From a virus (Duplodnaviria; Heunggongvirae; Uroviricota; Caudoviricetes), in IMG/VR virus record IMGVR_UViG_2744054962_000001: a DNA stretch of 64,000 nt, one strand, 5' to 3'. Each line of letters starts with the position of its first letter. The first letter of the stretch is position 1. Shown piece by piece: positions 43,034 through 63,986 of this stretch. Position numbers and translations under genes: made by a program. The notes beneath the pieces are model-generated. The model was not told the DNA's origin and did no database searches. It saw only the letters and a program-made list of their open reading frames with translations.

Positions 43034-44029
43034 GTGACCAGTAAGGCGTCTACGGACGCCTTACTTTTTGGAAGGAATGTACCGGTGAATTATCTCTTCG
43101 TAGATGGCAATAGCCTGGGTTATTACCACCAACAATCTGACAAATTGCACAACGGCGAAATGGAAGTACAGGCTGCTTTCGGCTTTGTTAAGAACGTCCG
43201 TCGTTATGCCTCCATCCTCCATGCCCGACCTATGATTCTTTGGGATGGATTTAGTGACAAGCGTCGCGACTTTTACCCGGACTACAAAGCAAATCGCGAC
43301 GACGATCCTGATATGAAAAAGATGAAGGAAGGCTTTGCTATCCAGAAGCCATACATCCTCAAAATGATGACCGCGCTTGGAGTTACCCAACTCATTGCAA
43401 AAGATGCAGAAGCGGATGATCTGGCCGGGCTGCTGGTATCCCGCATGGCACCGCAGCCAACCGTTGAACACATCTATCTGTTAACAGGCGATAGCGACTG
43501 GCTTCAGTTAGTTCGTGAAAACGTAAGCTGGGTAAGCCTGCGTGAAGACGCCAAAAACAAGCAGGTTAATTTTGAGCAATTTGCGGAGCTGACAGGATTC
43601 GCCACGCCTCGCGCATTTTTGGAAGCAAAAGCATTACAAGGCGATAACTCGGACAACATTAGCGGTGTTGGTGGCATTGGTGCTGGCGGTGCGAAAGAGC
43701 TGCTGCATGAATGGGGAAGTGTCGCAACGATGGTACGCGGCATCAACGACGGCTCAATCGTGGTTAATAAAGGGCGTCATAAGACCGCCTTCAACAAACT
43801 AGCGAAGAATGCCTTCAACGAGAAAACAGGCTGTCGAATGCTCGAAGCGTTCAAGAGAAACATCACGCTAATGAACCTGATTGAGACGAAGTTTCCGCCT
43901 ACCGAAATCGAAACAATCAAAGGCAATCGTGACGTGAAAGCATTCGAGCAACTGTGCTACGAGCTGAATTTCCGTTCGTTCCTTGAAGACCTTGAAGTGT
44001 TTGTTCTTCCATTCGAAAGGTATTGCTAA
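43034..44029 (+). CDS. 5'-3' exonuclease / flap endonuclease (PIN-like)
   Basis: YLFVDGNSLGYY, AKDAEADDLAG, helix-hairpin-helix region; track ATG at 43034 lies inside the upstream terminator, true start likely GTG near 43085. Confidence 0.7.
   Translation: MTSKASTDALLFGRNVPVNYLFVDGNSLGYYHQQSDKLHNGEMEVQAAFGFVKNVRRYASILHARPMILWDGFSDKRRDFYPDYKANRDDDPDMKKMKEGFAIQKPYILKMMTALGVTQLIAKDAEADDLAGLLVSRMAPQPTVEHIYLLTGDSDWLQLVRENVSWVSLREDAKNKQVNFEQFAELTGFATPRAFLEAKALQGDNSDNISGVGGIGAGGAKELLHEWGSVATMVRGINDGSIVVNKGRHKTAFNKLAKNAFNEKTGCRMLEAFKRNITLMNLIETKFPPTEIETIKGNRDVKAFEQLCYELNFRSFLEDLEVFVLPFERYC
43041..43069 (+). terminator. rho-independent terminator (AGGCGTC hairpin family)
   Basis: GTAAGGCGTC-tacg-GACGCCTTAC then TTTTT. 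Confidence 0.7.
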
Positions 44030-44295
44030 TGCTTAAATCGATTATTAATGGCGCTACAACCACCCCTACCCAACTGGCAAAAGAGATTGTCTTTTATCAC
44101 GGTGAGTACGCTGTCATCGCACTGCCGTCAATTCTGGGCGCTGCCGGAATGAAAGCGACAGATCGCGAGTTTGGATTAGTCAGCGAGCAGGTCGTAAAAA
44201 TCCTCGCTCGTGTATCCAGACTCCTTAACCACGATGCGATTGTATTCGACGAATCCGCCGCTTTAAAACGAATCAACGAAACAAAAGGAGCCTGA
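44023..44295 (+). CDS. hypothetical protein
   Basis: 90 aa, coupled between exonuclease and recombinase genes. Confidence 0.3.
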   Translation: MLMLKSIINGATTTPTQLAKEIVFYHGEYAVIALPSILGAAGMKATDREFGLVSEQVVKILARVSRLLNHDAIVFDESAALKRINETKGA

Positions 44296-44297
44296 TC

Positions 44298-46637
44298 ATG
44301 GCAAAAGGAAAATCCGCACTGGCACTTGCTCTGAAAAAGAAAATCGGTAGCAACGACGAAATTCAGAAAGTAACTCATTGGATTGATACAGGCTTTCCAC
44401 CGTTAAACAAAGCTATTTCTGGTCGTTACGATGGCGGCTTCCCATGTGGTCGTATCGTCGAAGTATTCGGTCCTCCAAGCGCGGGGAAATGTGTTACCGC
44501 AGACACCATGCTGCTGACGGAGCGTGGAATGGTAACAGTGAAAGAGTTGTTTGAGATTGAAGGGTACAAAGCGACATGCACTACTCGCGATGTAGAGCAT
44601 AACGTTGGACTCATCAATGAAAATGGCGTGATAGAGAAGACCTCACACCTGACATGGAACAACCGTCGCAAATTCAAGCGTATTAAGCTGGCATCAGGCG
44701 GTTATATCGAGGCTACGTTCCGTCACCCAATCCGTGTGGTTGACGACTTAGGTAATGTCGTCTGGCGACATGCTGAAAAAATCAGTGTAGGCGACACGAT
44801 TCCTTCAATGGTTGGCACACATCAATTCGGCGATCAGCACCTGGATGCCAATATCGCAAAACTGATGGGCTATTTAATTGCTGACGGATACGTGGCCTCT
44901 GAAAATTCAGTGAATTTTTCTAACACAGATCCTTTCATCAAGGATGAGTACTACCGCCTCATTTCGCTGGTATCAGACAAGATGCCAGTTACGAGAAAAC
45001 ATAACGGCTCGGAAGACCATGTGCTGTTTAGCAAAGAGGTGCGTTCGCTGCTTTTTAAAGAATATGGTCTGGAGTATGAGAAAGCTGCTGGCAAGCAGGT
45101 TCCGTTGAGTGTGCGTCGCGCCAATAGCGAGGCTCAAATTGCATTCCTTCGCGGCTACTTTGAGCTGGAATGCCACGTCAATGATGGTCGCTGCATTGAG
45201 GTTGTGAGCGCGAGTGGGCTGCTGCTACAGCAAATTCGCCTCATGCTCCTGAATCTGGGGATTACGTCAACTATCTCTGAAAAACACGTCGCGGGTTATG
45301 AAAATACATATTACCGGCTGTCATTCAGTGGCTCTAATTACGACCTTTTTCTGTCAACGATTGGTTTCGAATCTCCGGCACGTTTATCAGTGGCAACCAA
45401 ACGGGACATTGGTTTTGACCGCACTTACTCAGGCTATGTTCCGCACATCAGCGGCTTAGTGAAATCACTCTACGAGTCGCTCACCAAGACCACCCGTGAA
45501 GACTACGCTCTGGTAGACCACGTTATTGGCCGCGGCGATCGTGTCGGAATAGACAAACTGCGAGAAATCTATGTCTCCTTCATTGGCAGAAAGAATCGTT
45601 TTAACGAGCATCTGTTTGCACAACTGGCAGCGGTAATTGGCTCTAACTTGTTCTACGACGAAGTCGTGGCTATTGAGGAAGGTGAAGCACCAACGTTCGA
45701 CGTAGCGATGCCGGAAACACACTCTTTCTGGTCTAACGGGATTATCAGCCACAACACATTCCTTGCAACAGCAGCGATGATCTCCGCTCAAAAACAAGAT
45801 GGTCTGGCGGTATTCCTCGATCATGAAAACAGTTTTGACGTTGGCCTGGCTGTAGCCAATGGCCTGAACGCAGATGAGGATGACGGTCAGTGGGTATACA
45901 AGCAGCCTGATACCTTCGAAGACTCTGTAGAGTTGATCGGCACAATACTTAAATTGGTACGTGATGAAGAGCTTATCCCCGAATCAGCACCTATCTGTAT
46001 CGTGGCTGACTCTCTTGCGTCTATGGTTCCGAACTCCAAAGCCGAGAAGTTCGAAAAGATGGCTGAAGGCACTGCCAAAGACAAAGATCAGCTAAACATG
46101 AACGACAATACGGCACTGGCTCGTGCGACGAGTGCGAACTTCCCTACTCTGGCTTTGTGGGCACGCAAATACAACGCCTGCATCATCTTCTTGAATCAGG
46201 TTCGCACAAAAATCGGTGTAATGTTTGGCGACCCTACTACGTCGCCAGGTGGAGATTCACCGAAGTTCTACGCATCTGTACGTATCCGTCTTGGTGCATC
46301 GGTGATGAAGGATGGTAAAGAGAAGATCGGTCAGGACGTAGGCGCAGAATGCATCAAAAACAAAGTTGCACCACCGTATGGCAAATGCACCTGGAAATTC
46401 TACTTCGATCCTACTCGTGGCCTCGACGTTATCGAGTCGCTCGTCGAGTACATGCTGGAAGAAGGATACCTGCCAAAGAACGCCAGCGGTCGAGTAGAAA
46501 TTGGTGACAAGAAATACACCAAATCACAGATCGTCGAGATGTATCGGGAGAAGCCACTGGCTGAAATCATTGCGGCTTTGCAGGCAATCGACGACCGAAG
46601 AGCAAAAGACAACCCCACCGAGTCAGTAGAAGAGTAA
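44298..46637 (+). CDS. RecA-family recombinase interrupted by an intein
   Basis: exteins join as GPPSAGK|TFLATAAM (P-loop) with RecA-like L2 region GGDSPKFYASVRIRLG; combined exteins about 357 aa. Confidence 0.8.
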   Translation: MAKGKSALALALKKKIGSNDEIQKVTHWIDTGFPPLNKAISGRYDGGFPCGRIVEVFGPPSAGKCVTADTMLLTERGMVTVKELFEIEGYKATCTTRDVEHNVGLINENGVIEKTSHLTWNNRRKFKRIKLASGGYIEATFRHPIRVVDDLGNVVWRHAEKISVGDTIPSMVGTHQFGDQHLDANIAKLMGYLIADGYVASENSVNFSNTDPFIKDEYYRLISLVSDKMPVTRKHNGSEDHVLFSKEVRSLLFKEYGLEYEKAAGKQVPLSVRRANSEAQIAFLRGYFELECHVNDGRCIEVVSASGLLLQQIRLMLLNLGITSTISEKHVAGYENTYYRLSFSGSNYDLFLSTIGFESPARLSVATKRDIGFDRTYSGYVPHISGLVKSLYESLTKTTREDYALVDHVIGRGDRVGIDKLREIYVSFIGRKNRFNEHLFAQLAAVIGSNLFYDEVVAIEEGEAPTFDVAMPETHSFWSNGIISHNTFLATAAMISAQKQDGLAVFLDHENSFDVGLAVANGLNADEDDGQWVYKQPDTFEDSVELIGTILKLVRDEELIPESAPICIVADSLASMVPNSKAEKFEKMAEGTAKDKDQLNMNDNTALARATSANFPTLALWARKYNACIIFLNQVRTKIGVMFGDPTTSPGGDSPKFYASVRIRLGASVMKDGKEKIGQDVGAECIKNKVAPPYGKCTWKFYFDPTRGLDVIESLVEYMLEEGYLPKNASGRVEIGDKKYTKSQIVEMYREKPLAEIIAALQAIDDRRAKDNPTESVEE
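44490..45755 (+). mobile_element. intein with LAGLIDADG-type homing endonuclease domain inside recA-like gene
   Basis: begins with Cys directly after SAGK, ends ...IISHN followed by Thr; internal LAGLIDADG-like motifs (LMGYLIADGYV, FLRGYFELECHV); 422 aa. Confidence 0.75.
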
Positions 46638-58200: not shown

Positions 58201-60516
58201 ATGATAAGCATCGTAAAACGTAACGGCCAAACAGAGCCGTTATCCGAAGAAAAATACAACCGCGTCGTAATGTATGGCGTAGAAGGCATTCGTGGTGTAA
58301 GCGCATCCGCTGTAGCAATGGGAGCTGCGGCCAGCATTTTTGATGGGATTACCACCAGCCAGTTGCATGAGGCTTTGGTTAAATCTGCCGCTGATTTGAT
58401 CTCACCAGAAGCACCAAATTACTCACAGGTGGCTGCCCGCCTGAACATTTTTAAAATCCGCAAAGATGCCTTCGGTCGTTACGACTATCCGAACTTCTAC
58501 CAACACATTGTCAAGAACGTTAACAAGGGCGTTTATGACAAGGATTTGCTGACACATTATTCGTTTGAAGAGATCGAAGAACTCGGCAATTACATTAAGC
58601 CGAAACGTGACGATCTTTTTGGCTATGCAGCTACGGTGCAGTTGCAAAGCAAATACCTCGTTCAAAACCGTGTTACTGGTGAGATTCATGAGGGGCCGCA
58701 ACATATCTATATGCTGGTAGGCATGTGTCTGTTCCAGAATTGGGAAGACGACTGCGCTGGCAAAACACGTATGGAGATGGTCAAAGGTTTCTATGACGTT
58801 ACAAGTACGTTCAAACTGTCTCTGCCCACACCAATCATGGCCGGCGTCCGTACTCCAACCCGTCAGTTCTCCAGTTGTGTGCTGATTGAGTCTGGCGATA
58901 GTCTGAAAGGGATTAGTGCAGCTTCAGCCGCAATTATCGACTACGTTTCACGTCGTGCTGGAATTGGTATTGGTTTTGGCCGTATCCGTGCGCTGGGCAG
59001 CGAGATCCGCAATGGTGAAGCCACCCATACCGGAGTTATTCCATTCCTGAAGCATTTCCAGACGGCTGTTAAATCTTGTTCGCAAGGTGGTGTTCGTGGT
59101 GGCGCAGCAACAGCGTTTTACCCGATCTGGCATCTTGAAGTTGAAAGTCTGCTGGTGGTGAAAAATAACCGTGGTATTGATGAAAACCGCGTTCGCCATC
59201 TTGATTACGGCGTCATGAGTAACCGTCTAATGTACCGTCGACTCGTCAGAAGCGAGAACATCACTCTGTTCAGCCCGCATGATGTGCCTGATATGTACGA
59301 AGCCTTCTTCACAGACCAGGAGCTGTTTGAAAAGCTGTACCATAAATACGAAGCCGATGATTCAATTCGCAAGAAGTCAGTACCTGCCATTGAGCTGTTC
59401 TCATCTCTGATGCAGGAACGAGCGTCCACGGGCCGAATTTATATTGCGAACGTCGATCATATTAACGAGCATGGCGCTTTCATTCCTGCTCTTGCACCTG
59501 TTCGCCAGTCAAACCTGTGCATGGAGATCACTCTACCCACTCGTCCACTGGCATTTACCGACGACCCGAACGGTGAGATCGCGCTATGCACTTTATCCGC
59601 TTTTAACCTCGGAGCCATCCGTTCACTGGAGTCTCTTAAAGAGGTGGCGTTCTATGCCGTTGCTGCACTGGATTCGTTACTGGATTATCAAGACTATCCG
59701 ATGGAGGCAGCCGAAGTGCCTGCCAAAGCTCGTCGTAGCTTGGGAATTGGTGTAACCAACTTTGCTTATTACCTGGCAAAGAATGGCGTTCGTTATTCTG
59801 ATACCGCTGGCAATAAACTGGTGCATGAAACGTTCGAAGCTATCCAGTATTACCTTCTTGATGCCAGCTGCCGACTTGCTGAAGCAAAAGGTGAGTGTGA
59901 CTGGTTTGAGCAGACCAAGTACGCAATTGGTCAGTTGCCGATCGACCATTACCGTTCTTCATTAGACGAAAGTGGCGAAACCAACTTTGAGTTAAAGATG
60001 CCGTGGGAAGAACTGCGTGAACGTATTGCAAAATACGGCCTTCGCAACTCCACACTGACGGCACAAATGCCATGCGAGACTTCCAGCCAGATCACTAATT
60101 CCACCAACGGCATCGAACCGCCTCGTGGACCGGTGTCGGTGAAATCTTCTAAGGACGGCATCGTTAAGATGGTCGTGCCTGAGTTTGAAAAACTGAAGGA
60201 ACAGTATGAATACCTGTGGGATATGCCGGACAACCGCGGCTATCTGACAAAGGTGGCGATCATCCAGAAGTTCTTTGACCAGGCTATTTCAGCCAATACC
60301 AACTATGACCCTTCTCGCTTTGAAGGCGATAAAGTCCCAATGATGACGCTACTGTCAGATTTGCTTCTCGCCTACAAGATGGGAGTTAAAACGCTTTACT
60401 ACCACAACACCAGAGATGGGGCAGGAAAGCGTGATGACGACGAACCGCAGAATCCACTGACGCAAGCTGTAGCCGTCGAGCCAGAAGATGAGTGCGACGG
60501 AGCCTGCAAAATCTGA
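58201..60516 (+). CDS. nrdA: ribonucleoside-diphosphate reductase alpha subunit (class Ia)
   Basis: 771 aa; N-terminal ATP-cone, conserved active-site region (SNLCMEI) and radical-transfer Tyr pair near C-terminus. Confidence 0.9.
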   Translation: MISIVKRNGQTEPLSEEKYNRVVMYGVEGIRGVSASAVAMGAAASIFDGITTSQLHEALVKSAADLISPEAPNYSQVAARLNIFKIRKDAFGRYDYPNFYQHIVKNVNKGVYDKDLLTHYSFEEIEELGNYIKPKRDDLFGYAATVQLQSKYLVQNRVTGEIHEGPQHIYMLVGMCLFQNWEDDCAGKTRMEMVKGFYDVTSTFKLSLPTPIMAGVRTPTRQFSSCVLIESGDSLKGISAASAAIIDYVSRRAGIGIGFGRIRALGSEIRNGEATHTGVIPFLKHFQTAVKSCSQGGVRGGAATAFYPIWHLEVESLLVVKNNRGIDENRVRHLDYGVMSNRLMYRRLVRSENITLFSPHDVPDMYEAFFTDQELFEKLYHKYEADDSIRKKSVPAIELFSSLMQERASTGRIYIANVDHINEHGAFIPALAPVRQSNLCMEITLPTRPLAFTDDPNGEIALCTLSAFNLGAIRSLESLKEVAFYAVAALDSLLDYQDYPMEAAEVPAKARRSLGIGVTNFAYYLAKNGVRYSDTAGNKLVHETFEAIQYYLLDASCRLAEAKGECDWFEQTKYAIGQLPIDHYRSSLDESGETNFELKMPWEELRERIAKYGLRNSTLTAQMPCETSSQITNSTNGIEPPRGPVSVKSSKDGIVKMVVPEFEKLKEQYEYLWDMPDNRGYLTKVAIIQKFFDQAISANTNYDPSRFEGDKVPMMTLLSDLLLAYKMGVKTLYYHNTRDGAGKRDDDEPQNPLTQAVAVEPEDECDGACKI

Positions 60517-60622
60517 CATATGGTGGGGGATATCCCCACCTTCTCTTTGATTTGTAAGCCTTGTTTAAACACATAAGATAACAACTTGTTTAAACGCACC
60601 AAAAAAGAAAAAGGAAAAACAC

Positions 60623-61765
60623 ATGTCATATTCAACGTTCCGTTTGGGTGCTAATGATGCAACCAAAGAGCCTATGTTCCTCGGACAATCTGTCAACGTG
60701 GCTCGTTACGATCAACAAAAATACCGTGATTTTGAAAAGTTGATTGAACGTCAATTGTCTTTCTTCTGGCGGCCGGAAGAAGTTGATATTTCGAGCGATC
60801 GCATCGACTTCAATACGAAGCTGCGGGACCACGAACGCCACATTTTCCTGAGTAATCTCCGTTATCAAACGTTGCTCGATTCAGTTCAGGGACGTAGCCC
60901 AAACGCAACTCTGCTGCCGCTTATCTCTATTCCTGAACTGGAAACGTGGGTTGAAACGTGGTCTTTCTCTGAGACTATCCATAGCCGCAGCTACACCCAC
61001 ATTATTCGTGGCATGGTGGACGATCCGAGTATTGTTTTTGACGGTATTGTTACGGATGAAGAAATCATCAACCGAGCCATCAGTATCTCTGCTGAATATG
61101 ACAGGCTTTATGGGATGACCTGCGATCGCCAGTCGTTAGGCGAGAAGGAATTTGAGCGTCTGTACGTAAATGAATATGGCTGGGAGCCATATCCTTTGCA
61201 CCGTCAGCTTTTCCGCACGTTAGTGTCCATTAATGCGCTTGAGGCGATCCGTTTCTATGTAAGTTTTGCATGTACGTTTGCCTTTGGCGAACGGAAGTTG
61301 CTTGAGGGTAACACCAAAATTATGCGCTTTATTGCCCGTGATGAAGCTCTGCATTGCGAAGGAACTGAACGCATGATCCGCTTCATGCGTACCGGTCGCG
61401 AAGGTTTATTGTGGAAAGAGATTGCTGCTGATGAAGAAAACGTCATTTACGACACCATGAAATCAGTCGCCGAACAAGAAATGAACTGGGCAGACTATCT
61501 CTTCAAAGACGGTTCGATGATTGGTTTAAACGCGGATATTCTGAAGACCTATGTAAAATACCGAACCAATCTGGCTATGAATCGTCTTGGCCTGAAGGCT
61601 TTATTTCCAGAAGTTACCACTGATCCGCTGGTCTGGATGAACAAGTGGTTGTTAACCGACACACTGCAAATTGCACCACAAGAGGCAGAGCAAAGCACAT
61701 ATCTGGTAGGTCAGATCGATTCTACCGTGGACAAGGCTTCTCTAAGCCAGTTTGCAGACCTGTAA
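60623..61765 (+). CDS. nrdB: ribonucleoside-diphosphate reductase beta subunit
   Basis: 380 aa, di-iron/tyrosyl radical ferritin-like fold motifs ([20 protein letters not shown]). Confidence 0.9.
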
Positions 61766-61842: not shown

Positions 61843-62712
61843 ATGAACTTTACCAAACTGACTGACCACCTGAAACTTGCCACCGATCGACTCATTGGAT
61901 TTAAGCCAGAACCATATGAGTTGCATGAAGGCCATGGTGTAGCCACTGAAAGTATTTACAAGATGGTCGATCAGTTTCATGAACTCTTCCAGCATCCGAG
62001 ACGCGTTATGCCGACACCAGAGCTGCTTCGTCTCCGTGCAAGCCTGATTCATGAAGAAGCTGTAGTGGAAGGTATTCCAGCCGCAATGAATGGGGATATT
62101 GAGCAACTGCTGGATGCAATGGCCGACTTTTTATACGTTGGTGTTGGTACGATGGTCGCCATCAAAGGTGGTATTTCTACCGGCATGACCTATTACACGC
62201 AGGAACAGAGCATTGATCGCTTTATGCAGACAATTTTTGTGCCCGGTAACACTGTTTTCGATGATATGGCAATGCCATTTCAGGAAGCTCGTGAGGCGTC
62301 ATGTATGCTCGAAGAGCTGGCAGATAAACTTGAGAAGAAGACTGTTAAGGATTCTGAGCTGATTCAGGAACTGCGCCGTGTAATGAACAAAATCTATGTG
62401 GCGTGCATGATGACTTATCGACTGGCTGATTTCCTCGGTATCAATGTCGTCGAGCTGGTTGGCGAAATTCATCGGTCTAACATGACAAAATTATGGCCTG
62501 CTGATGTTGAGGAACGTCGCCAGGCTGTGGCCAACTGCAAATACGACTCTTCAGATCTGGGATTCCGCCATGCTGATGGCACCGATAAGATGATCGGTTT
62601 TCGAATTTCCGATGGAAAGATTCTGAAGTCTCCAACCTATAGTGATGTCGATTTATCCTCCTTTGTTGAGCAAGCTAAAGCCTCAGCAATGTACGGAATG
62701 ATCAAAAAATAA
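61843..62712 (+). CDS. MazG-like NTP pyrophosphohydrolase domain protein
   Basis: EEAVVEG...DIEQLLDAMADFLYV pattern (EExxE / D-rich helices); start at internal Met MNFTK with AGGAACAAAACTAGCATG context (track ORF starts 61645 overlapping nrdB). Confidence 0.4.
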   Translation: MNFTKLTDHLKLATDRLIGFKPEPYELHEGHGVATESIYKMVDQFHELFQHPRRVMPTPELLRLRASLIHEEAVVEGIPAAMNGDIEQLLDAMADFLYVGVGTMVAIKGGISTGMTYYTQEQSIDRFMQTIFVPGNTVFDDMAMPFQEAREASCMLEELADKLEKKTVKDSELIQELRRVMNKIYVACMMTYRLADFLGINVVELVGEIHRSNMTKLWPADVEERRQAVANCKYDSSDLGFRHADGTDKMIGFRISDGKILKSPTYSDVDLSSFVEQAKASAMYGMIKK

Positions 62713-62779: not shown

Positions 62780-62806
62780 TGGTGGCCTATGGCCACCATT
62801 TTTTTA
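62780..62806 (+). terminator. rho-independent terminator
   Basis: TGGTGGCC-tat-GGCCACCA then TTTTTTT. Confidence 0.7.
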
Positions 62807-62867: not shown

Positions 62868-62882
62868 CTTTGTGAGGTTTTT

Positions 62883-63986
62883 GTGTCACTCCTTTTGAAT
62901 CGAGAGCATACGAACGGTCAGGTAACAAACGCATCGTATGCAAAAGTTATTGAGACGGTGCTTAAAAGCGGCGTGCAGGCTGATGATCGCACAGGCACTG
63001 GTACTTTAAGCACCTGCTACGTTCCCTCTTACTACATGCTTACTGGTGGGACTGTGCCGCTTATTTCTGGAAAGGCGGTAAATCTTAAGCCACTACTTGT
63101 CGAACTTGAGTGGTATCTGAAAGGCACGGGCAACATCCAATTTCTCAAGGATAACGGCGTTAAGATTTGGGATGCATGGGCCGATGAGAATGGCGATTTG
63201 GGGCCGGTTTACGGTAAGCAGTGGCGTCGATGGGAAGATACCCGCATCGTGAGCCATAGTGAATATCTGAGCAAGATCGCTACTTTCCGTGAACGCGGGT
63301 ACAAAGTCGAGGGATACCTGGGTATCAGTGAAGATCGCGTAGTGCTGTCCCGTGAAATCGATCAGCTACAGCGTATTGTCGATACACTGCGCACGAACCC
63401 TACCGATCGTCGCATCATGCTTAACGCATGGAACGTAGGCGAGCTTGAGGATATGAAACTGCCACCTTGCCACTTTGTCTTCTCTTTGTGGAGTCGTGAG
63501 CTGGATTTTGAAACCCGTTTAACGATGGCAACTGACATTGGTCTTCAACACAGTCGCCTCGGTTACGAGTCTATCTACACCAAGATGCTATACGATCTGG
63601 ATATGGACGGCAGTGTTACTGAAGCTGAACTGGATGAACTTGGAATCCCCAAACGCATCCTCAACTCCTGCCTCGTACAGCGTAGCGTAGACACTTTTGT
63701 TGGTATGCCATTCAATATTGCTGGCTATGGCATTCTCACTCATTTTCTCGCGAAGATTACGGGTCACATGGCCGGTGCATTTGTGCATTTTGGCTTTGAC
63801 GTGCATTTGTACAACAACCACATGGAAGGTGTGTGTGAGCTAATGAAACGACAGGCTCCAGAGCATTCAGATCCGGTCGTTATTTTCCCTCATGAATGGT
63901 CAGAGTTGGATGATTTCAAATGGGACGAGGTTTTAATTCTTGGCTATGACCCTCTACCGTGGATCAAGGTTCCAGTGGCGGTGTGA
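62883..63986 (+). CDS. thyA: thymidylate synthase (ThyA family) with two insertions
   Basis: DRTGTGT, GDLGPVYGKQWR, RRIMLNAWNVGELEDMKLPPCH (catalytic Cys), PFNIAGY, HLYNNH conserved; extra segments after WRRWED and after the catalytic Cys relative to E. coli ThyA; GTG start. Confidence 0.8.
   Translation: MSLLLNREHTNGQVTNASYAKVIETVLKSGVQADDRTGTGTLSTCYVPSYYMLTGGTVPLISGKAVNLKPLLVELEWYLKGTGNIQFLKDNGVKIWDAWADENGDLGPVYGKQWRRWEDTRIVSHSEYLSKIATFRERGYKVEGYLGISEDRVVLSREIDQLQRIVDTLRTNPTDRRIMLNAWNVGELEDMKLPPCHFVFSLWSRELDFETRLTMATDIGLQHSRLGYESIYTKMLYDLDMDGSVTEAELDELGIPKRILNSCLVQRSVDTFVGMPFNIAGYGILTHFLAKITGHMAGAFVHFGFDVHLYNNHMEGVCELMKRQAPEHSDPVVIFPHEWSELDDFKWDEVLILGYDPLPWIKVPVAV

Follow-up and report, generated by a model that had tools for sequence, protein, structure and literature searches.

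The ThyA-family gene at the 3′ end of a 64,000-nucleotide stretch of a Caudoviricetes record (IMG/VR IMGVR_UViG_2744054962_000001; this whole stretch is hereafter the window) carries two extra segments around its catalytic cysteine, which raises the question of whether it encodes an ordinary thymidylate synthase or a relative that modifies pyrimidines for phage DNA. The gene, thyA, belongs to an SSU5-like phage-plasmid of Escherichia coli: it shares 99.8% DNA identity with CYRAN_72 of Escherichia phage Cyrano and 78% with Salmonella phage SSU5, and Cyrano is pLF82, the SSU5-like phage-plasmid found in E. coli LF82 (PMC9928086). Its product is very probably a canonical ThyA-type thymidylate synthase, which converts deoxyuridine monophosphate (dUMP) and 5,10-methylene-tetrahydrofolate into deoxythymidine monophosphate (dTMP) and dihydrofolate. 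The gene and the parts of it on which the argument turns are as follows.

62883-63986, plus strand: thyA, ThyA-type thymidylate synthase of 367 amino acids with a GTG start, taken from the list of open reading frames (ORFs)
63237-63350, plus strand: insertion 1 (residues 119-156), net +34 amino acids between E. coli W101 and D110
63468-63470, plus strand: codon for Cys196 (E. coli C146), the catalytic nucleophile within P-P-C-H, an invariant alignment column
63492-63662, plus strand: insertion 2 (residues 204-260), net +51 amino acids between E. coli H147 and R166

Family, active site and fold

The window ThyA matches the Pfam family PF00303 (Thymidylat_synt) with E = 2.3e-78 and 263.5 bits, against a cutoff of 24.3, and passes the NCBIfam thymidylate synthase equivalog TIGR03284 with 219 bits, against a cutoff of 108.35. 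Its scores for the narrower equivalogs NF002497, NF002499 and NF010393 lie below the respective cutoffs, as is expected for a divergent, insertion-bearing lineage. The closest relatives found with HMMER among solved structures are bona fide thymidylate synthases (E = 1e-60 to 1e-64), and the core columns are about 50% identical to those of an ordinary 264-residue bacterial ThyA.

The active site was examined in a MAFFT alignment of 271 sequences, in which all 16 checked residues are the same as in the E. coli enzyme (R21, E58, W80, W83, Y94, R126, R127, C146, H147, Q165, R166, S167, D169, N177, H207 and Y209, in E. coli numbering). The nucleophile and the phosphate-binding set (C196, H197, R36, R267, R176, R177 and S268 of the window ThyA) occupy invariant columns, and the residues for uracil recognition and proton relay are all present (N278, D270, H197, E74, Y110, H308 and Y310, corresponding to E. 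coli N177, D169, H147, E58, Y94, H207 and Y209). The conservation of R126 and R127 implies that the enzyme is an obligate dimer. W80 and W83 belong to the folate site of thymidylate synthases, and the C-terminal residue that follows P-V-A closes over the cofactor; here the two tryptophans are kept in an I-W-D-A-W-A-D stretch (W96 and W99) and the chain ends in P-V-A-V. The conserved blocks WRRWED, PPCH and PFNIAGY, described as intact in the initial annotation, are indeed all present. Judged by its sequence, the active site is complete and canonical, from which we infer the production of dTMP and dihydrofolate.

The predicted structure agrees with this assignment. The AlphaFold2 model of the window ThyA has a mean predicted local distance difference test score (pLDDT) of 94.5 and a predicted template modelling score (pTM) of 0.93, and its comparison with E. 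coli thymidylate synthase in Foldseek gives a target-normalised template modelling score (TM-score) of 0.94, which identifies a thymidylate synthase fold.

Two insertions around the catalytic cysteine

When the window ThyA is compared by HMMER with E. coli ThyA and other solved thymidylate synthases, the blocks 18-118, 157-203 and 262-367 are aligned, and residues 119-156 and 204-260 remain unmatched. Together with the PF00303 match and the MAFFT alignment, these blocks confirm the reading of the initial annotation, in which the gene encodes a ThyA-family enzyme that carries an insertion on either side of the catalytic cysteine. It had given sizes of about 40 residues after WRRWED and about 45 between PPCH and PFNIAGY; both positions are right and the sizes roughly so, the residues counted between anchor columns of the alignment, relative to E. 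coli ThyA, coming to +34 and +51. Compared with E. coli and other bacterial ThyA enzymes (EC 2.1.1.45; PF00303, TIGR03284), the window ThyA has about 85 extra residues in the two insertions and, in addition, a 17-residue N-terminal extension.

Both insertions are confidently folded in the AlphaFold2 model (pLDDT mostly >90). Insertion 1 and its flanks comprise a strand (117-124), two helices (125-130 and 132-137) and two further strands (141-146 and 152-159), an arrangement that enlarges the surface β-ribbon after W101 into a β-α-α-β-β unit. Insertion 2 contributes three helices (209-225, 231-242 and 247-253), which cap a lengthened core β-hairpin formed by strands 197-206 and 258-270; this is the core hairpin that follows the catalytic cysteine. 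The whole-chain pTM of 0.93 argues, at the level of the model, for a rigid placement of the insertions. The two insertions probably pack together, and they appear to sit well away from the catalytic centre, with the catalytic cysteine at the opposite end of the core hairpin. This picture fits insertions that leave the active site unaltered and that are two parts of one lineage-specific subdomain.

The distribution of the insertions among relatives is in line with such a subdomain. Of the 116 top homologues, 47 carry both long insertions, 58 carry neither and 11 are mixed, and this co-occurrence fits one composite subdomain. In the SSU5-like clade, mean pairwise identity is 36-39% in the insertions, against 60-68% in the core, and particular positions are nevertheless invariant or nearly so within the clade: D119, T120, R121, R138, G139, Y140 and R157 in insertion 1, and S204, R205, R212, A216, H223, S230, D251, P256, R258 and L260 in insertion 2.

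Conservation of this kind also bears on a very different explanation, according to which the insertions are not parts of the enzyme at all, being instead what is left of a mobile element (for example, a degenerate intein or the footprint of a homing endonuclease) or an artefact of assembly or annotation. The idea draws on four metagenomic relatives (P0149, P0159, P0201 and P0226) that carry LAGLIDADG-type inteins at position ~148 of the thymidylate synthase profile; these score clearly (e.g., Intein_splicing, E = 5e-19), and their location at the catalytic cysteine indicates that this region is a target of mobile elements in this lineage. The thyA ORF of the window, however, contains no interruption and recurs without change in many independent complete plasmids, and its insertions of 34 and 51 amino acids are far below the size of an intein. 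Insertion 2 begins 7 residues past the cysteine rather than at it, and Pfam finds no HINT or endonuclease match in either insertion. Moreover, both insertions retain invariant positions across relatives down to ~47% overall identity, are modelled with pLDDT >90 and are present in distant phage lineages. Size, conservation and the absence of HINT motifs led us to reject an intein or mobile-element remnant, and the explanation as a whole has a negligible probability.

A calcium-binding motif in insertion 2 was likewise considered and set aside. Residues 238-249 (window positions 63594-63629), with the sequence DLDMDGSVTEAE, fit the 12-residue EF-hand calcium-binding loop D-x-D-x-D-G-x-V-x-x-x-E, and Pfam returns EF-hand_5 at E = 0.062. 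The motif occurs in 1 of the 271 family sequences, a cluster representative with 99% identity has DLEMDG, and the model places a helix at residues 231-242, so that the resemblance is probably due to chance.

The two-insertion architecture extends well beyond the element of the window. It occurs in SSU5-like elements of Salmonella, Klebsiella, Enterobacter, Raoultella, Providencia, Morganella and Xenorhabdus, and also in jumbo phages such as SPN3US, Erwinia phages and CR5. With residues 117-262 as the query, 242 clusters are recovered at E <= 1e-10 among 1.84 billion representatives, and the two metagenomic contexts of relatives that were examined are both phage-like. In fold searches that covered BFVD and the PDB, the viral proteins most similar in structure are thymidylate synthases of jumbo phages, including that of 201phi2-1. 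Their predicted structures extend over the inserted parts and reach query-normalised TM-scores of 0.83-0.86, whereas the E. coli enzyme scores 0.68. Like the window ThyA, the jumbo-phage enzymes (SPN3US gp229; those of the Erwinia phages Machina, Wellington and Asesino; Cronobacter phage CR5; and Pseudomonas phage 201phi2-1) have insertions at both sites. They are 37-41% identical to the window ThyA over 95-98% of its length and share motifs with it in insertion 1 (D-T-[RK]...G-Y) and in insertion 2 (E-R...L-D...[IV]-P-[RK]). They differ in that they belong to virulent jumbo phages rather than to a temperate phage-plasmid, and some of them have additional parts that bring them to 457-471 amino acids. 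The genes annotated within 5 kb of SPN3US gp229 include no dihydrofolate reductase (DHFR), and no biochemical characterisation of the insertion-bearing thymidylate synthases of jumbo phages was found in the literature. In a neighbour-joining tree built from the core only, 4 state changes in the presence of the insertions suffice for 201 leaves. As this tree is crude and its sample leans towards matches to the query, we do not claim a single origin. The insertion architecture is passed on within a large ThyA lineage, carried mostly by phages, whose members include SSU5-like phage-plasmids, jumbo phages of the SPN3US, Erwinia and 201phi2-1 types, and many metagenomic phage contigs.

Outside this lineage, counterparts are partial. 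With the solved enzyme of Burkholderia thailandensis (3v8h), the alignment covers 288 residues, compared with ~247 for plain thymidylate synthases, and it continues through insertion 1 in one equal-length stretch; the NCBIfam profile NF010393, to whose class 3v8h belongs, likewise gives one matched stretch, from residue 18 to 214 of the query. These two observations indicate that insertion 1 has a solved bacterial counterpart, although sequence similarity between insertion 1 alone and 3v8h is too low to be detected. In distinction to the window ThyA, 3v8h (NF010393/PRK13821 class) is a chromosomal bacterial enzyme, with 28% overall identity and no evidence of a counterpart of insertion 2. No solved thymidylate synthase covers insertion 2, and each insertion searched alone has no significant match in Pfam or among the sequences of the PDB. 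In human thymidylate synthase, 8 residues are inserted at position 146, which coincides with the site of insertion 1 (PMC5929524) and shows that additions at this site are tolerated by bona fide thymidylate synthases. The human and other eukaryotic enzymes differ, however, in that their insert at this site is much shorter, their other insert lies elsewhere, at position 117, and they have nothing at the site of insertion 2. A literature search found no study of these insertions or of the thymidylate synthases of SSU5, pHCM2 or jumbo phages. Separately, one ThyA relative of 455 amino acids (P0253) has a 184-residue insertion at the site of insertion 1 and lacks insertion 2; Pfam detects only the ThyA domain in it.

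The hydroxymethylase question and the gene neighbourhood

Hydroxymethylases do exist among the ThyA homologues of phages (PMC8989533, PMC8670742), and the initial annotation had raised the possibility that the window enzyme is a dUMP or deoxycytidine monophosphate (dCMP) hydroxymethylase used for DNA base modification. In its full form, this alternative holds that the enzyme acts as a dUMP hydroxymethylase or another C5-modifier of pyrimidines for phage DNA, while a MazG-like enzyme encoded nearby clears the canonical deoxynucleoside triphosphate (dNTP). We aligned three reference hydroxymethylases with the window ThyA: T4 gp42 (dCMP), SPO1 gp29 (dUMP) and the ThyA homologue of ViI (dUMP). All three belong to the same superfamily and share with it the cysteine nucleophile, R166, S167, D169 and the overall fold. 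They differ in having N or T in place of H147, in missing PFNIA and in their C-terminus, and all three lack both insertions. Their identity to the window ThyA is 19-24%, against the ~50% core identity to ThyA; the T4 gp42 alignment gives 23-24%, and BLASTP matches SPO1 gp29 at E = 0.023 with 19% identity and the ViI homologue with 24% identity over 155 amino acids.

The features that set the dUMP-using references apart can be stated more closely. SPO1 gp29 and the ViI homologue have in common C-N for C-H, N-R-S for Q-R-S and the loss of both W80 and W83 (T4 gp42 keeps a tryptophan at the W80 column and loses W83); PFNIA is likewise missing from both, and in place of the P-V-A-[IV] end they have a long C-terminal extension. 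Of this signature, which derives from our own alignment of two references and is not a published definition, the window ThyA shows 0 features, having C-H, Q-R-S, W96 and W99, PFNIA and P-V-A-V. These two references do exceed the length of plain ThyA (383 amino acids in SPO1 gp29 and 346 in the ViI homologue), which at first sight recalls the window enzyme; their extra length is, however, the C-terminal extension and not the two insertions. According to a metagenome-wide study, N177 and H147 separate dUMP-using from cytosine-modifying enzymes, and an aspartate in place of N177 leads to cytosine specificity (PMC8670742). The aspartate of dCMP hydroxymethylases and methylases is absent from this position in the window ThyA, which has N278. 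The enzyme is thus in the thymidylate synthase state at every discriminating position (N177, H147, W80, W83, Q165, PFNIA and P-V-A-V).

The genes around thyA provide a second line of evidence. Positions of the first four features below refer to the window; the genes that follow thyA lie just past its 3′ end and were read from the closely related Cyrano sequence (L001, 13106-14636) and from SSU5 (L008, 4106-5636).

58201-61765, plus strand: nrdA (58201-60516) and nrdB (60623-61765), ribonucleotide reductase subunits belonging to the same nucleotide-supply region, from the ORFs and the collinear Cyrano annotation
61843-62712, plus strand: MazG-like nucleoside triphosphate pyrophosphohydrolase of 289 amino acids (PRA-PH, PHROG 671), with the start taken from the Cyrano annotation
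62780-62805, plus strand: terminator-like GC-rich hairpin between the MazG-like gene and thyA, from a consensus scan (pattern match only)
62874-62877, plus strand: Shine-Dalgarno-like GAGG, 5 nucleotides 5′ of the thyA GTG, read off the sequence
Next after thyA in Cyrano and SSU5: HAD/PNKP-phosphatase-like protein of 137 amino acids
Second after thyA in Cyrano and SSU5: DHFR (PF00186, E = 1.6e-34)
Fourth gene of the thyA run in Cyrano and SSU5: P-loop NMP-kinase-like protein of 214 amino acids

In Cyrano and SSU5, thyA is the first of four genes in a row, with abutting or overlapping stop and start codons at the junctions. Thymidylate synthase oxidises its folate, using the reducing power of tetrahydrofolate, and a hydroxymethylase does not; the presence of DHFR in the thyA run fits reductive methylation, with production of dihydrofolate, and not hydroxymethylation. 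The SSU5 DHFR (AFL47010.1) is DfrA51, which confers trimethoprim resistance upon expression in E. coli (PMC12217456).

The MazG-like gene had been noted earlier as a sign of nucleotide-pool editing. The ORF itself is real (Pfam PRA-PH, E = 2.3e-8; PHROG 671, E = 1e-47). The nearest solved protein to its product, at a weak E = 0.0015, is DR2231, which we take to be a dUTPase-like MazG protein, and the gene may supply dUMP, thereby feeding thymidylate synthase rather than editing the nucleotide pool. It is also parted from thyA by the hairpin at 62780-62805, which reads TGGTGGCC-TAT-GGCCACCA followed by TTTTTTT and has an 8-bp stem with 6 GC pairs; this hairpin suggests that thyA starts a separate transcription unit. 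With a GTG at 61645 as its start, the MazG-like ORF would reach back into the end of nrdB (61765); the start annotated in Cyrano and SSU5, and used here, is the ATG at 61843.

Phage ViI builds its hypermodified thymine from 5-hydroxymethyl-2′-deoxyuridine, and the genes of the 5-hydroxymethyluracil (hmU) pathway include a dCMP deaminase, a dTMPase, a dTTPase, a 5-hmU DNA kinase and aGPT-Pplase (PMC8989533). In the full annotation of Cyrano there is no glucosyltransferase, 5-hmU DNA kinase, aGPT-Pplase, dCMP deaminase or other accessory gene for hmU or 5-hydroxymethylcytosine, a negative result whose weak point is that many ORFs are annotated as hypothetical.

Several considerations do weigh against a plain thymidylate synthase. 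The MazG-like, HAD phosphatase-like and P-loop kinase-like neighbours superficially resemble the dTTPase, dTMPase and kinase of hmU phages (PMC8989533). Q165 is replaced by M, C, L or F in about one fifth of the sampled insertion-bearing relatives, although the window ThyA itself has Q. Altered kinetics, altered regulation or a side activity would be compatible with the sequence, and the literature search found no enzymatic or genetic test of the window ThyA or of any insertion-bearing relative. Set beside the retention of N177 and H147, the lack of any hydroxymethylase feature, the low identity to the references and the gene context, these considerations leave a hydroxymethylase for DNA base modification unsupported and, in our judgement, very unlikely.

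Host element and proposed role

Identical or near-identical copies of thyA are present in 230 of 5426 complete E. coli genomes (~4%), where 232 of the 234 places in which the gene occurs are plasmids of ~110 kb; the PGAP label there is thymidylate synthase. In the Cyrano record, the product of CYRAN_72 (L001, 12001-13104) is named 'ThyX Thymidylate synthase' in GenBank. That name is wrong, the protein being of the ThyA type (PF00303) and not the flavin-dependent ThyX. The same record carries cargo that is unusual for a phage-plasmid: CobT-like and CobS-like ('cobalamin') genes and a methionyl-tRNA synthetase are annotated at 43137-46576, which by collinearity falls within the window, and at 90996-93029, the methionyl-tRNA synthetase lying outside the window.

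For the canonical thymidylate synthase favoured here, a role in the replication of the element can be proposed. The thyA product would make dTMP and dihydrofolate for this replication together with the neighbouring DHFR, and nrdAB, the MazG-like gene and the thyA run together would let the element supply its own thymidylate while it replicates. By analogy with the inserts on the surface of T4 thymidylate synthase, the two insertions would probably have a structural role (stabilisation of the dimer or of the fold) or serve in the docking of nucleotide-synthesis partners, rather than take part in the chemistry.

A more specific proposal, compatible with canonical thymidylate synthase activity, is that the surface module formed by the two insertions docks DHFR, ribonucleotide reductase or other phage nucleotide enzymes into a channelling complex that synthesises dNTPs or, through its conserved arginine, histidine and aspartate residues, binds nucleic acid or a regulatory ligand. 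For T4 thymidylate synthase, surface inserts have been suggested to make contacts within the T4 dNTP synthetase complex, which lends the idea a precedent. The insertions evolve faster than the core and yet keep invariant charged or polar residues (D119, R121, R138, R157, R205, R212, H223, D251 and R258), the subdomain is kept across very different phage lineages, and the stop and start codons of thyA abut or overlap with those of neighbours in nucleotide metabolism. Such an added function, if true, would explain why unrelated SSU5-like phage-plasmids and jumbo phages have retained the module. On the other hand, the conserved arginines and aspartates may be internal salt bridges, the bacterial enzyme 3v8h (NF010393 class), which is of the housekeeping type, also has a counterpart of insertion 1, and neither of the two metagenomic contexts examined shows adjacency to DHFR. 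On balance, we consider this added function possible but rather unlikely.

The enzyme is thus very probably an ordinary thymidylate synthase, already annotated as such in hundreds of plasmid and phage records, and one candidate for a new DNA-modification pathway is removed. The feature for which no study or function was found is a folded add-on of ~85 residues, made from two co-occurring insertions and widespread in a mostly phage-borne ThyA lineage, whose helical half has no solved counterpart. The element that carries it is common in clinical Enterobacterales, being present in ~4% of complete E. coli genomes, and in relatives the DHFR that accompanies thyA has been demonstrated to confer trimethoprim resistance. 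Having a second thymidylate cycle on a plasmid could, speculatively, matter for antifolate susceptibility.

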